The notes beneath the pieces were generated by a model, which did no database searches, was not told the DNA's origin, and was given only the letters and a program-made list of their open reading frames with translations. A stretch of 64,000 nt of DNA from Candidatus Bathyarchaeota archaeon (GTDB taxonomy: Archaea > Thermoproteota > Bathyarchaeia > Bathyarchaeales > Bathycorpusculaceae). The position numbers and the translations under genes are program-made. Positions 21,981 through 56,358 of the stretch are shown here, piece by piece (within the stretch, counting starts at the first letter, position 1; the number at the start of each line of letters is the position of its first letter). The stretch covers positions 1 to 64,000 of the forward strand of contig CAWFFH010000007.1 in assembly GCA_963815095.1 (NCBI GenBank). The letters run 5' to 3'.

Positions 21981-22092
21981 TATTCTTCAGTTATGTATGT
22001 AGATCTTTGGGAATAGAGTCTCAAGGATTTTTTGTGACGAATACGACTGTTATGGATTTGCAGAAAGAGTTCTTTTAACCCAAGGCACCGAT
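21981..22092 (-). repeat. Nuclease 3'-end repeat, copy 1
   Basis: TATTCTTCAGTTA...TTTGGGAATAGAGTC...GACGAATAC...CCAAGGCACCGAT matches 37161-37255 and the other copies. Confidence 0.8.
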
Positions 22093-22398
22093 TCAATCGC
22101 TGATCCCTCTGTAGGACACAAACTAAGTTATTACTCTCCCAAGTGGCAGTTAACATGAAGTTACTATTTTATTTGCATCAGAATCGATTGAACTGAACTA
22201 TTCCTCGGTAGTTAGTGCTATTTCACTTATGTATTGAACATGAATTGAGTTAATTATCCCTGTCTTTCATATCGCTTCGCTGCGACGTCTCGTCGGCCAC
22301 GATATCCTAACAGTTTACTTTTAAGATTTAACGTAGTTATTAGTAATACACAAAGCTTTAAAGCAAAAACACTGCATAGGCAATCAGGGATAACGCTA

Positions 22399-22893
22399 TT
22401 GCCTTTAGAAGATTATTTAATGCCGAACGAGAACATCCGGTACCAAAGCGATTTTGACATTTCATACGCCGGTAAACCCTATACCGTCGTTCTTACTGAT
22501 ATTCGATTAATTTTGTATGCTCGTAAAGGCTTGATTTTCAAGAGTGATGATGTTGTAACCGAAGCTATCAGAGACGTTCAGGGAATCAAGTACAAGGAAA
22601 CAGGCATGTTTATCAAAAGTTCATACCTTGAAATTTCAAGTGCGTCAAAGATGGTTTTGATGGGCAATCAGGCTTCAATTAAAACTCTATATCAGAGATT
22701 ATTACCTTTCTTGTCTCCAGAACTGCGGCAACCTGCACAACAGGCACAAAGCATGTATATGCCTCCACCGCCTCCTGCATACGCAGTTGCCGCGTCCCAA
22801 ACAACATACGCCTCTTCCAAGTTCTGTCCAGCTTGTGGAATCGAACAACCAAACAACAGCAAATTCTGCAACAATTGCGGCAAACCTTTGTGA
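22399..22893 (+). CDS. Bacterial PH-like domain plus C-terminal zinc ribbon
   Basis: L.PNENI...VVLTDIRLILY.RKGL; C-terminal FCPACG...SKFCNNCGKPL. Confidence 0.7.
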   Translation: MPLEDYLMPNENIRYQSDFDISYAGKPYTVVLTDIRLILYARKGLIFKSDDVVTEAIRDVQGIKYKETGMFIKSSYLEISSASKMVLMGNQASIKTLYQRLLPFLSPELRQPAQQAQSMYMPPPPPAYAVAASQTTYASSKFCPACGIEQPNNSKFCNNCGKPL

Positions 22894-22904
22894 GCTAACT
22901 CAAC

Positions 22905-23420
22905 ATGGAAAGGCAAACTTTTCAAGCGTGCAATTGTGACCTGACAAAGTTACACAAAAGTATGGAAACATACTTTGTCGGAAAATGCTATAGAGTAAAT
23001 AATTTCTTTAAAGAAAATCTTTACTTAACTCAAGCTTACAAGAAACAATTAGGAAATAATGTTATTGTTTCTCAAATCCAAGGAACACCGGAAAATTTTG
23101 ATATCTCAATAGGATACTCTCAAAAAATAAACAACATTAACACAATACAACCAATTGAAAGAATTCCCTTCAATGCAAAAGTCATTTTAGGTGAACCTTT
23201 GCTGGAAAAAAATTTTATGAACTATATTACTACCCAGGCTGAACTAAAAAGAAATACATTTGGAATGGGAATGTCCAATTCGACAGAGCCTTTTTTGGCG
23301 CCTGTTTGGAAAGAAAGAGAAATAATTAGAGAAATTGAAGTAGTCTATTGCAGATATTGTGGTTCAAAAAATAATGCAAGACAAACAAATTGTGTAAAAT
23401 GCAACGCTTCACTTCACTAA
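22905..23420 (+). CDS. Hypothetical protein with C-terminal zinc ribbon
   Basis: EIIREIEVVYCRYCG...NCVKCNASL. Confidence 0.65.
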   Translation: MERQTFQACNCDLTKLHKSMETYFVGKCYRVNNFFKENLYLTQAYKKQLGNNVIVSQIQGTPENFDISIGYSQKINNINTIQPIERIPFNAKVILGEPLLEKNFMNYITTQAELKRNTFGMGMSNSTEPFLAPVWKEREIIREIEVVYCRYCGSKNNARQTNCVKCNASLH

Positions 23421-23543
23421 TTTCTTTCAGGTTTGTGTCGTTACGCTGAGGGAAAAATTTTGAAACATGCCAAACAGGGTTTAACCTGAGTTATAGTAAA
23501 TCGTAAGACTTATTAGCACAATTTCAATAATACAACTGTTGAC

Positions 23544-53717: not shown

Positions 53718-54362
53718 TTGGCGAATTTTATGGTTTTTTTCTTAAACGATTATCTTGTTGCCAATGGAATAAGCCTAAGAAAACGAGTTTCCGACCTTTT
53801 TGATGAATTAGAAAAGAACAATGAATTAGCCCAAGTTTTCATACAAAACCCAACGCTTGTTTTGCAATCCAAAGTTTTGCCTGAATTCCAAGTGCTCGAA
53901 GAAAACTCAATTAACGCCGCAAATCAACTTTTGTTCTCTGTTTTAAGTAACGACAAATTCATGAAGTGGACCCAAGACTACGGGACAAAACTGATTGATC
54001 GATATAACAAAACAGGAAAGGTTCCTGACAAAAAGAAAATACTGCGAGATTTCGCAAAAGGAATTATCGAATATGGGGACCCAGAATTGCTCAGTGACAT
54101 TCTTGAAATGCCCCAAGAACTAATTGAATCGTCCTCAGGGCTCGTTGATCGCTGGTGGTTTTACTATCATATTATTGCGTTCATTGAATTCTTCTACATT
54201 TTCGTATACGACTATATCATTGTTGGTCCAGACAGAATCAGCCTGCTGGATGAAAACCAAAAAATTGTAACGATTTCACCTAAAGAACTCAAATCTTTGG
54301 CTGAACAAATGATTAAATATTCAAAGAAAATGAAAGAAGATAATAATTTGGATAATCATTAA
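53718..54362 (+). CDS. Putative RiPP precursor A (leader, aromatic core, follower)
   Basis: Paralogue of 54381-55055 except in the core (about 54147-54227: RWWFYYHIIAFIEFFYIFVYDYIIVG). Confidence 0.6.
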   Translation: MANFMVFFLNDYLVANGISLRKRVSDLFDELEKNNELAQVFIQNPTLVLQSKVLPEFQVLEENSINAANQLLFSVLSNDKFMKWTQDYGTKLIDRYNKTGKVPDKKKILRDFAKGIIEYGDPELLSDILEMPQELIESSSGLVDRWWFYYHIIAFIEFFYIFVYDYIIVGPDRISLLDENQKIVTISPKELKSLAEQMIKYSKKMKEDNNLDNH

Positions 54363-54380
54363 CTAAATGGACGAATTTTC

Positions 54381-55055
54381 ATGGGCTTTTATTTGAATGA
54401 TTTCCTCACAACTAATGGCATAAACCTCAGAAAACGCGTATCTGATCTATTCGACGAGTTAGAGAAAAACCCTGAATTAGCTACGGCCTTCATTCGCAAC
54501 CCGATAGTTGTTTTGCAAACAAAAATTTTCCCAGAATTCCCAAAGTACGATGTAAATCGAACAAATGAAGCAAACCAATTTCTCTTTTCAGTGTTATCTA
54601 ACGATAAATTCATGCAGTGGCTACAAAAATACCAAAAACAAACAATCATTCATTACAACAATTCCGGAAAACTACCAACTAAACAAAAAGTACTGCAAGA
54701 ATTCGCAAAAGCCTTAATCGAAAATGGCGACCCAAAAATACTGGGCGACCTACTGGACACTTCTCCAAAAACCATGGAACAATTAAACTCTTCTAAAATG
54801 ATAGAAATGGATTTTGTAGTCAGCAACAAGAATTTCGCCATATGGGAATATCTCTTTTTGATTCGAATCTCGCTTTTTGTCTACAACTACGATTACTTTA
54901 CTTACCAAGCAGCTGGGATAGGCAAAATAGACATAATTGATGAACAACACAAAATTGTCACAGTTTCTTCGAAAGAACTTCGGTCCCTATCAGATCAAAT
55001 AGTAAAATATGCCAAGCAAAAGCGAGAACAAACAGAAGAGAAAAAACTTGAATAA
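54381..55055 (+). CDS. Putative RiPP precursor B
   Basis: Same leader and follower; core about 54807-54917: FVVSNKNFAIWEYLFLIRISLFVYNYDYFTY. Confidence 0.6.
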   Translation: MGFYLNDFLTTNGINLRKRVSDLFDELEKNPELATAFIRNPIVVLQTKIFPEFPKYDVNRTNEANQFLFSVLSNDKFMQWLQKYQKQTIIHYNNSGKLPTKQKVLQEFAKALIENGDPKILGDLLDTSPKTMEQLNSSKMIEMDFVVSNKNFAIWEYLFLIRISLFVYNYDYFTYQAAGIGKIDIIDEQHKIVTVSSKELRSLSDQIVKYAKQKREQTEEKKLE

Positions 55056-56145
55056 AACACAAACCACACAAAACATAGCTACAACCCCTGTCAAAGGTGT
55101 GTTTCGCGGCCCAAGAACACTCTCAATTATGCCAACCTTTAGATGCGTAGCAAACTGCACATCATGCGGCACCCTTAGCAACCCAAACGACAAAACCAAA
55201 CTCACACTTCCAACCATCAAAAAATGCATCATACAAGCAAAACGCAGCAACTTTGCAAACATCGTTTTTACAGGCGGAGAAGCCACACTATGCTGGAAAA
55301 ACCTGCTAAAAGCCATTAAAGAAACAAAAAAACAGGGAATGGTGACTCGACTAGTAACCAACGCTCACTGGGCAAAAACCCCCAAAAAAACACTACGAAC
55401 CATTAAAACCCTAAAAGAAGCAGGATTAGACGAAATAAATTTTAGCACAGGCGACGAACACGCAAAATTTGTTCCCATACAAAATGTAATTAACGCTATT
55501 TCAGCATCAATTTTCCATCACCTAAAACCAGCAGTCATGGTTGAAGATAGAAACGGAAGAACAATCACAAAAAACAAAATTCTTCGCAACCCAGAAATAA
55601 AAAAAATACTTTCAAAGGACAAAAACAATTTGACCTTTATGGAAAGCCCCTGGATGCCGCTTGATCCATTCAAAATTGAACAATACCAAAAAACCGCCAT
55701 AGCAAACAAACAAAATCTAGATTCATTTACGAGTTGCGACACTGTTTTGCAATCTCTCACAATTTTGTCAGATGGAAATATTTCAACATGCTGCGGATTT
55801 GGAGCCAGGTTAATACCTGAACTTTTAGTCTCAAATGTGCACAAACCAAATTTCGTCGCGGAAGCGATTGAGAATACGGAAAATGACTTTATGAAAATCT
55901 GGCTTCACTATGAGGGACCGATTAAAATTTTGGCTTGGGCGGCAGAAAAAAACCCCGCTATAAAATGGGAAAATATGTATGCTCACTGCTGCCAAGCCTG
56001 CCTAAGAATCTACAAAGATCCAACGGTTATGCAAACCATTAAGGAGAATTATAAAGAAAAAATTGGCTCAGTCTTGAGCAGTGCTTGGATGGAGGAAGTC
56101 TTCATTCCAACGCGCTTCCAAAAACAAAGCATCCCAGCAAACTGA
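55009..56145 (+). CDS. Radical SAM enzyme, YydG/EpeE peptide-epimerase-like
   Basis: CVANCTSC, FTGGEA, VTNAHW, STGDEHAKFVP, DGNISTCC, LHYEG and CCQAC. Likely start is TTG at 55048. Confidence 0.85.
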   Translation: MPSKSENKQKRKNLNKTQTTQNIATTPVKGVFRGPRTLSIMPTFRCVANCTSCGTLSNPNDKTKLTLPTIKKCIIQAKRSNFANIVFTGGEATLCWKNLLKAIKETKKQGMVTRLVTNAHWAKTPKKTLRTIKTLKEAGLDEINFSTGDEHAKFVPIQNVINAISASIFHHLKPAVMVEDRNGRTITKNKILRNPEIKKILSKDKNNLTFMESPWMPLDPFKIEQYQKTAIANKQNLDSFTSCDTVLQSLTILSDGNISTCCGFGARLIPELLVSNVHKPNFVAEAIENTENDFMKIWLHYEGPIKILAWAAEKNPAIKWENMYAHCCQACLRIYKDPTVMQTIKENYKEKIGSVLSSAWMEEVFIPTRFQKQSIPAN

Positions 56146-56281
56146 CTCTGACGGTGGCGAGTAAAGTCGCTTACTTGATTAATCAGGCTGTTAGGCCTGA
56201 GAATATTTTGGCGTTAACGTTTAACCAGAAAACAGCTGAAGACCCGAAGGAAAAAGTTATTGTGCTGCTGGGGAATTTCAG
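56146..56281 (+). pseudogene. UvrD/PcrA N-terminal remnant
   Basis: KVAYLINQAVRPENILALTFNQKTAE (motif Ia). Confidence 0.7.
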
Positions 56282-56358
56282 TTAAGGCATGAAATTTTTG
56301 GGAATATGGTTTATAAAAATTTGATATCAACGAATACATCTGTTACGGATTTGCTTAG
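56277..56358 (-). repeat. Nuclease 3'-end repeat, copy 7
   Basis: TTCAGTTAAGGCATGAAATTTTTGGGAATA...TTTGATATCAACGAATACATCTGTTACGGATTTGCTTAG. Confidence 0.85.

Follow-up and report, generated by a model that had tools for sequence, protein, structure and literature searches.

Here, we show using repeat and profile searches, comparison with related genomes and structure prediction that a stretch of 64,000 nucleotides (nt) from a Candidatus Bathyarchaeota archaeon carries a directly repeated unit that recurs in one orientation between cassettes of different cargo. This stretch (contig CAWFFH010000007.1, here C7:1-64000 of a genome of 2,692,925 bases in 9 contigs) is referred to as the window. The unit consists of the last ~32 codons of a decayed gene with a predicted PD-(D/E)XK nuclease fold, its stop codon, a spacer of ~60 nt and the beginning of a small, decayed open reading frame (ORF) of the Zn-ribbon type, and the same unit stands in same-orientation arrays in other species of this Bathyarchaeota genus. 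The copies may be relics of one ancestral stretch of ~0.3-0.5 kb, with cassettes added by homology-driven single-crossover insertion and copies eroded by illegitimate joins, a reading to which we give about an even chance. An earlier sequence-only reading of the window is confirmed in its observation of the repeat and partly supported in its interpretation, that of a reused anchor building a cassette array.

All seven places at which that reading had put the repeat hold true copies, which fall into the families D3, D6, D10, D14 and D15 of a repeat search of the window. Comparison of each copy with the whole genome by blastn gave matches on C7 alone, at 21980-56358 and on the plus strand throughout. 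An nhmmer profile of the unit likewise found the seven copies (E 4.4e-42 to 2.5e-14) and, at E 5e-7, a stub at 44541-44633; every match is on the plus strand of C7, and the rest of the 2.69-Mb genome has none; because the profile was built from the window copies themselves, its informative part is the absence elsewhere. By both methods no copy lies outside a 35-kb stretch of C7, and random scatter over the genome in both orientations was not seen.

The individual copies, whose gene sense is on the minus strand, differ in what they retain. Copy c21 (21925..22103; E 4.4e-42) runs from ..RCLGL through the stop and the spacer into the start of the small Zn-ribbon ORF and has an L1-type flank, whereas c26 (26087..26170; E 2.4e-17) is weak, an L2-type downstream flank with ~32 nt of the unit, truncated by a TrmB segment. 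Copy c30 (30178..30351; E 5.5e-39) holds the tail with a ~7-nt deletion, the spacer and the Zn-ribbon ORF start MLMTDDKLHCQACGYE, and c37 (37161..37822) is the sole copy with a gene body, a PD-(D/E)XK-fold pseudogene of which the minus-strand reading of the repeat is indeed the tail, as had been proposed. In c44 (44368..44477; E 1.8e-27) the tail has indels and a sharp left cut at CTTCAGTT beside the SOUL cassette, and the previously noticed stub next to it (44541..44662; E 5.1e-7) is a second partial tail (..ACGAATACATCTG) fused to a multi-copy sequence, here named class A. Only the gene-proximal part (..RLLYRCLGLIEHLLSKSV) remains in c51 (51088..51175; E 2.5e-14), the left junction of which with the ParDE segment lies in the microhomology ACGGATTT, and c56 (56277..56400; E 5.4e-31) is a tail with a sharp left cut at TTCAGTT that has been inherited jointly with the R-C flank on its right, like G022 copy d (89% over 286 nt; G022 is a relative described below). 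A further stub had been considered possible at 47862. The relic there, at the right end of the C2H2 segment (47862..47871, minus strand), is only ~9 nt long (TCAGTTAAG) and not significant alone; the same junction occurs in three relatives (G022, G108 and G131) and in G022 retains more unit-like sequence.

Assembly chimerism is unlikely, because short-read contigs of other runs span three junctions with 0 differences (37088-37262, 51061-51578 and 56337-56576) and several junctions recur in other genomes. In four soil runs no alternative joint and no circular or empty-site junction was found, a search that had only shallow short-read contigs, left parts uncovered and is uninformative on the absence of excision.

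What exactly is repeated? We aligned the unit from 17 copies in five genomes. In the sense of the gene it starts at about ...RLLHRCLGL, runs on through ...VTDIFVDIKSL and a stop, and continues with the spacer (..CTCTATTCCCAAAAATCTTATGCCTTAACTGAAGAATA..) and the first codons of the small decayed ORF MTDDKLHCQACGYE. The true stop of the gene is probably the one after KSL, because homologues of the nuclease-like gene end 2-17 residues past the FxD(V/I) motif and most copies have TAG right after ...VDIKSL. The tail had been read as coding throughout, but ~35 nt of it would then be non-coding. Likewise, copies had been described as ending at TTCAGTT; this holds for c44 and c56, which are cut at TTCAG, but c21 and c30 run 50-110 nt further left into the spacer and the start of the small ORF, MTDDKLHCQACG. 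No Rfam RNA family was found at the unit in a scan of the window. An 11-nt 'core' common to the copies (TTACGGATTTG) was considered as a crossover point and dropped, as gapped alignments show that c30, c44 and c56 continue with indels; nor does the edge of c51 support it, because that edge is microhomology common to the ParDE segment's own end as seen in G022.

The sequences on either side of the unit are of recurring types. The downstream flank occurs in three diverged forms, L1, L2 and L3, which as read here are mutually homologous. The upstream side is the gene body in window copy c37 and in the relatives G107 and G103, and a recurring foreign flank or unique sequence in the others: R-A in G022 copies a and c, G108 copies a and b and the window stub at 44541; R-B in G022 copies e and f and in G009; and R-C in window copy c56 and G022 copy d. 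Left and right flank types reassort in many combinations, between copies and between genomes. Two of the flanking sequences are repeats in their own right. Class A (~75 nt, GAGAAGTTGCTGCTG...TTGCACATCGACTGTTGCATC) lies at window positions 44585-44660 and 57725-57802 (class A at 57706 has no tail piece), several times on C3, and on C4, C8 and C9, in both orientations genome-wide; it is fused to the repeat centre in G022 and G108 and stands upstream of minus-strand ORFs. R-B is itself a ~360-nt repeat with five copies in two genomes (locus L032, 9900-10292 and 8567-8922, and three copies in G022), in which a Cys-rich stretch, ETC(G/D)NCGKCGESRFCG, is conserved and lacks an obvious start codon.

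The gene that supplied the tail is itself decayed. Its body at 37161-37822 (minus strand) has an in-frame stop, a frameshift and a replacement of the last ~20 nt, that is, of its 3′ extremity left of 37161. The open 122-residue piece has 1314 relatives in a representative protein library, of which the best is 54% identical and the typical length ~225 residues. The catalytic D...(D/E)xK motif is present: 40 homologues all have D90, E104 and K106, and the corresponding sequence in the window copy is WDAL...LVEAKSH. The predicted model of the best homologue (P0001) has a predicted local distance difference test score of 92.9, and its structural matches are almost all of the restriction-endonuclease fold (BstEII, Z 7.4; NucS, Z 7.1; SfsA, Z 6.4; PaqCI, SgrAI and Cfr10I), at middling Z scores; Foldseek places BstEII on top at E 4.7e-3. 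In a search of curated families the gene reached only MmcB-like, at E 0.013 and below the cut-off, with no match in NCBIfam and 0 matches to a PDB sequence profile, and PADLOC matched only the window piece of the gene to mad3, at E 7.7e-4. When seven relatives of the gene were compared with Pfam, five had no family match (one had a sub-threshold chance hit) and two were fused to an Exo_endo_phos domain. The label 'nuclease-like' is a fair one for what is a predicted fold, curated-family membership not being established.

A hidden Markov model of this family, searched against the six-frame translation of the genome, found just three pieces of this one gene and no further body fragments; all copies besides c37 are tails without bodies. 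In the window the body lies mid-array, not at an array end. A protein search recovered the gene in 0 of 40 genomes of relatives, and a later DNA search gave decayed copies in G107 and G103. The body is pseudogenized in all three genomes examined (those of the window, G107 and G103), with lesions that differ between the window genome and G107; it is missing from the arrays of G022, G108 and G009. The proposal that the anchor lies inside a protein-coding gene therefore does not stand as worded: the gene is an accessory pseudogene wherever its body was examined, and the unit passes its stop into the next ORF.

Among 120 genomes of the genus, searched with DNA at E≤1e-6, nine carry the tail or the gene. 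The window genome has six matches at this threshold, G022 has six copies on one strand over 24 kb, G108 has two copies, and G009, G107 and G131 have one each; G103, G132 and G069 give diverged matches to parts of the gene at 72-77%. An exact-core scan of a genome collection returned only four Bathyarchaeota records, already among these carriers, and the exact core was found in no viral contig and in no metagenome contig with two patterns. The neighbours XPB-Bax1, PAC2 and TrmB give the locus an archaeal context; no mcrA was found.

The most direct view of how a copy may be gained comes from two relatives. G022 has the order X-L1-unit-RB-[AbiE cassette]-L2-unit-RB, in which the direct repeats (unit plus flank) measure 515 nt and are 85% identical, and G009 has X-L1-unit-RB uninterrupted. 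This pair of an occupied and an uninterrupted locus is the footprint expected of a single-crossover insertion of an anchor-bearing circle. The G009 copy is moreover a patchwork of tracts like one or other of the two G022 copies (runs test, 25 against 58 expected, z -6.3; z about -3.3 on recalculation with ~40 sites of unalignable left flank removed), and because of these mosaic tracts we conclude that copies recombine or convert. Right ends of copies scatter over ~80 nt and repeats range from ~10 to 515 nt in length, which fits homology-length-dependent events better than a fixed crossover. Since the repeats are long, variable in length and mosaic, and no recombinase is at hand, we favour a homology-driven crossover. 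At its left end c51 has the microhomology ACGGATTT in common with the end of the ParDE segment itself, as G022 shows, and the unit matching c51 is intact in G022 upstream of the same beta-helix gene; in c51 the centre of a unit was lost through an illegitimate join. This join and the ragged right ends show that illegitimate recombination has a share in building the pattern.

Put together, the insertion model that we favour would run as follows. The ancestral stretch, in which an accessory PD-(D/E)XK-fold gene ended and, after the spacer, the next small ORF began, would have been reiterated directly in a flexible, additive island of a soil Bathyarchaeota lineage. Circular cassette DNA bearing a copy of the unit would insert into a resident copy by a single crossover of the Campbell type, and each insertion would add one cassette and one unit copy, always in the same orientation. 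Recombination from copy to copy would excise and reassort cassettes and convert copies, cassettes would pass between species, and adjoining illegitimate joins, some via microhomology, would erode copies from both sides. The crossover would be made chiefly by the host's general recombination and not by a dedicated site-specific recombinase. What we infer in this model is that circles are the intermediates, which enzyme acts and in which direction events ran. A bolder form of this model, which we consider unlikely, would be a recombinase-free cassette system and functional analogue of the integron, in which an anchor of 70-500 nt from a dead gene's end travels with each cassette. Circles of cassette and anchor, formed by recombination between adjacent anchors, would spread from species to species and enter at any anchor already resident, and this would maintain a common pool of cassettes for defence, toxin-antitoxin, transport and rhodopsin functions.

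The cassettes between the copies (22104..56276) are 3-7 kb long and carry genes on both strands. The blocks hold Zn-ribbon and unknown genes with DUF3800 and a DUF3800-X RNA; a TrmB-like helix-turn-helix gene, AbiEi/AbiEii and NUDIX; an MFS transporter and unknowns; DUF5615/PIN, a PLD-like gene, heliorhodopsin and SOUL; IscS-NifU-DsrE and C2H2; PIN/MazE, a beta-helix protein and ParE; and MFS, two paralogous proteins and a radical SAM protein. HicAB, which had been listed among the cargo, was not seen among the 88 ORFs of at least 60 residues, smaller ORFs being unscanned. Window blocks recur in G022, G108, G009, G107 and G131 in shuffled order and at 85-99% identity. In G022 these include the AbiEi/AbiEii block (27333-29578; 93.7%), the NUDIX block (29690-30184; 96.4%), the TrmB-like block (26170-26719; 93.3%) and the ParDE block (50519-51097; 93.1%); the beta-helix gene (48780-50519) is found in G022 and G108 at 87-89%, the IscS block in G107 at 92.8% and seven blocks in G131 at 90-99%. 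For the adjoining core at C7:65.5-77 kb the identity is 92% with G131 and 82-86% with the other four relatives, and a 4.8-kb core block has 83.8% identity in G022. Because many cassettes, including their non-coding parts, are more alike than core DNA, we infer that these may have been exchanged after the species split; stronger constraint could explain part of the likeness.

Three of these blocks contain observations of separate interest. The heliorhodopsin gene (Pfam E 1.8e-84) and the SOUL haem-binding gene that follows form one cassette (42746-44215), ~97% identical in G131. A possible peptide-modification cluster at 51259-56145 comprises the radical SAM gene (a weak YydG-type match, E 8e-16), the two paralogous proteins of 214 and 224 residues (68.6% nucleotide identity), a DHA2-type MFS exporter and an unknown protein of 217 residues. 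The DUF3800-X RNA (25952-26023, minus strand; 68.1 bits, E 7e-13), which directly follows the DUF3800 gene at 25293-25949, is the sole Rfam match in the window.

Do the borders of exchanged segments coincide with the unit? In part they do, as the shared segments have 41 distinct ends, of which eight fall no more than 40 nt from a unit where 4.8% are expected (binomial p 6e-4, the ends not being independent). Together with the reassorted flanks and the occupied and uninterrupted pair, this enrichment upholds the idea of a reused anchor to a degree. A number of observations, however, speak against our insertion model. The other 33 ends lie away from any unit. The nearest relative, G131, lacks window segments 30193-42492 (with c30 and c37), 47898-52066 and 53623-56724 (with c56) and has other DNA there instead, so that the two genomes differ by block replacements. 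Only two of the ten breakpoints lie within 40 nt of a unit (30193, inside the downstream flank of c30, and 47898, beside the stub at 47862), none of the differences runs from unit to unit and most lie elsewhere. In the 47-nt centre of the unit the window copies are 64-89% alike, and their mean of 76% makes them a poor substrate for homologous recombination at present. We see no concerted evolution within a genome, and several copies resemble a copy from another species more than they resemble the copies next to them. The centre is kept at 86% as against 79% in the adjoining 50 nt (same six copies). Finally, next to left neighbours that are unrelated (the SOUL, radical-SAM and C2H2 cassettes), c44, c56 and the 47862 relic all break off at TTCAG, at positions no more than ~3 nt apart, and such clustered left ends hint at a sequence-specific event.

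No gene for a dedicated enzyme was found in the arrays. As had been stated before, the window holds no recombinase: 0 of its 88 ORFs of at least 60 residues match a recombinase family, and the same holds for 0 of 87 ORFs of at least 100 residues in the loci of G022, G108 and G009. The window genome has four PF00589 matches, two on C3 and one each on C4 and C6, and none on the window's contig; its integrases include ORFs of 432 (C6), 445 (C3) and ~697 (C4) residues; it has no resolvase or serine recombinase and no SSV-type integrase (0 matches to PF16795), and nhmmer found no unit-like sequence near any of its integrases. IS110-family elements, present as four near-identical (99.8-100%) and presumably active copies of ~1.3 kb with 356-residue transposase frames (C3:1061003, C3:1398755, C4:2051 and C4:83804), were considered as a driver and set aside, as they lie on C3 and C4 rather than on the window contig and have flanks unlike the unit.

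In five carrier genomes, a six-frame search with PF00589 gave 32 matches, one of them only in an array-bearing stretch. This match is a 143-residue C-terminal integrase fragment (G022:C7:96395-96592, E 1.7e-5), 300 nt from the tRNA-Asn that bounds the G022 island (L026 6025-6754, equal to G022:C7:96025-96754), and it is 50% identical to the C4 integrase of the window genome (a ~697-residue ORF near 44.6-45.2 kb), its nearest full-length relative there. G108 has a 16-nt relic of a tRNA-Asn 3′ end near its copies; the window contains no tRNA, and the tRNA-Asn of its genome is on another contig. Because of the tRNA-Asn and integrase fragment in G022 and the relic in G108, the island is, in at least two relatives, a classical tRNA-linked hot spot, which accounts for the island and not for the reiterated unit.

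Could the unit nonetheless be an attachment (att) site? A tyrosine recombinase encoded elsewhere, or since lost, would then have stacked integrase-less elements at the 3′ end of the nuclease-like gene and left one att copy per event, as in tRNA-linked additive islands. The single orientation and locus would follow, and the recurrent sharp left edge at TTCAG in three copies with unrelated neighbours, the slightly better conserved centre and the low present-day identity of the window copies all agree with it, as do the tRNA-Asn with an integrase fragment 300 nt off at the end of the G022 island and the 16-nt relic near the G108 copies. There is precedent as well, since a survey of thaumarchaeal integrated elements gives 14 of 68 that use the 3′-distal region of a protein gene and describes arrays through re-use of a site (PMC6563490), and partial tRNA copies are described as strewn through Prochlorococcus islands (10.1101/2020.12.28.424599). 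Yet no integrase lies in or beside the arrays of the window, G108, G009 and G131, and the integrases of the window genome have no unit-like sequence near them. The gene body, which would be expected intact at one end of such an array, is a pseudogene in the middle of the window array and missing from three arrays, right ends are ragged, repeats are mosaic and reach 515 nt, and c51 is a microhomology join. We therefore regard an att site as possible but doubtful.

Somewhat less probable still, and in our judgement rather improbable, is that the unit is not a recombination site at all, but that integrative or defence elements of common descent, each bearing the nuclease-like gene together with the adjoining one, stacked at the tRNA-linked hot spot and decayed, the tails being chance survivors. 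The abundance of pseudogenes and of other island repeats (the 802-nt pair, the PLD-like pair, the helicase 3′ end, PIN/MazE pieces, class A and the Zn-ribbon region) would suit such a history, as would the repetition of R-B, with five copies in G009 and G022, and the tRNA-Asn with the integrase fragment at the G022 island end. Against this, the tail occurs seven to eight times in the window and every other family only twice, the six-frame genome yields no more fragments of the gene body, flank types reassort around the unit, and one cassette is bounded exactly by unit-bearing repeats and has an uninterrupted counterpart; in addition, two putative element copies have their common pieces in orders that are not rotations of one another. 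An integron-like array (a cluster of attC sites without an integrase), a dispersed miniature transposable element and an assembly artefact are largely refuted, and we attach next to no probability to them. Short same-orientation repeats between cassettes rich in toxin-antitoxin genes give a superficial likeness to integrons, which have been reported from archaeal metagenome genomes (10.1101/2022.02.06.479319). An imperfect palindrome of the attC hairpin type, however, is absent from the folds of five copies on both strands, and these ten single-strand folds are no better than shuffled sequences (z -0.56 to +1.86); the cassettes are 3-7 kb long with genes on both strands, and there is neither an IntI nor a PF00589 match on the contig. 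A dispersed element is contradicted by the confinement of the copies to one 35-kb stretch in one orientation, and an artefact by the independent short-read contigs that bridge junctions and by the recurrence of junctions in other genomes.

The array resembles several known systems and departs from each. Additive islands, such as the tycheposon islands of Prochlorococcus and archaeal element arrays, are likewise built at one locus, with direct repeats of the target's end between blocks, decay of the older blocks, a cargo of defence, toxin-antitoxin and niche genes and content that varies among close relatives (10.1101/2020.12.28.424599; PMC6563490). They include partial tRNA copies left across Prochlorococcus islands (10.1101/2020.12.28.424599), and archaeal arrays that arise by re-use of one integration site (PMC6563490). 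Here, by contrast, the repeated piece is the end of a dead protein gene with the start of its neighbour and not a tRNA, the arrays neither contain nor adjoin an integrase (save for the fragment at the island end of G022), the repeats are long (up to 515 nt), ragged and mosaic, and the gene body is not at the array end. Thaumarchaeota elements in 3′-distal regions of protein genes share the use of a protein gene's 3′ end as an anchor in an archaeon, but have a short att site and an integrase per element, neither of which is found here (PMC6563490). One gene's fragments at element borders in an archaeon are also known from SSV-type 'suicidal' integrases, and homologous recombination between tandem integrated elements is known in archaea (PMC8371274); in our case the split gene has a PD-(D/E)XK nuclease fold and is not an integrase, does not overlap a tRNA, and its tails far outnumber its bodies.

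Integron arrays, and attC clusters without an integrase, have same-orientation repeats between cassettes, many of them toxin-antitoxin cassettes, and there as here the repeat tends to move with one neighbouring cassette (c56 with R-C); they differ in having a hairpin palindrome and IntI, whereas our cassettes are multi-genic on both strands and our repeats are homologous to a gene end. In homology-facilitated illegitimate recombination and the 'minimal mobile elements' of Neisseria, cassettes are exchanged on conserved flanks without a dedicated recombinase. Such exchange replaces the DNA between two anchors and does not itself multiply the anchor. A homologous anchor combined with illegitimate or microhomology joins, as in c51, gives block replacement between relatives in both settings, but here the anchor is reiterated, which requires single-crossover insertion of circles. 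What is distinct in this system is an anchor from a dead accessory gene's end and its neighbour's start, its long and ragged copies, arrays without a recombinase and the phylum Bathyarchaeota. Our literature searches found no paper on such arrays in Bathyarchaeota, which is not proof that none is in print.

The island contains further repeats and broken genes. Other direct repeats are an 802-nt pair (24133-24932 and 38748-39544; 95%), a pair of PLD-like genes (18887-19377 and 42107-42593; 86%) and a 43-nt relic of the 3′ end of a UvrD-like helicase gene (19469-19511 and 40219-40261; 91%). A hairpin-like element (GAAGTAGTAGTCC...GACTACTACTTC) occurs at window positions 1102-1142 and 27237-27277, at C6:86070-86165, on C3 and C4 and in the islands of relatives; the ~600-nt stretch around it (26720-27372), which contains small Cys-rich, Zn-ribbon-like ORFs, is itself multi-copy in G022, G009 and G107. 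Window positions 1-21600 are also island-like, with many broken genes (a split DUF72 gene, a PNP-NACHT STAND protein, HEAT-repeat proteins, HsdM with a fragmented HsdR and a split UvrD-like helicase), and the histidine-kinase pieces at 170-810 lie in the orientation opposite to that of the complete kinase at 59397-60824. The region beside a XerA-like gene on C3 has only a 95-nt piece in common with the sequence after c44, from which we draw no conclusion.

Finally, Bathyarchaeota are abundant and uncultured, and little is known of their gene exchange. This locus shows recent exchange at the scale of cassettes, in blocks whose similarity between species exceeds that of the core genome around them, among them the heliorhodopsin-SOUL pair, Fe-S assembly genes, abortive-infection and toxin-antitoxin pairs and the radical-SAM peptide cluster. 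The unit TTCAGTTAAGGCATAAGATTTTTGGGAATAGAGTCTATAGGGATTTGATATCGACGAATAC provides a sequence-defined handle with which such exchange can be followed in metagenomes. If a trans-acting recombinase were found, the unit would be a new att site in a protein-gene end for the phylum; if the anchor works without a dedicated recombinase, it would represent an unusually simple route to an additive island.

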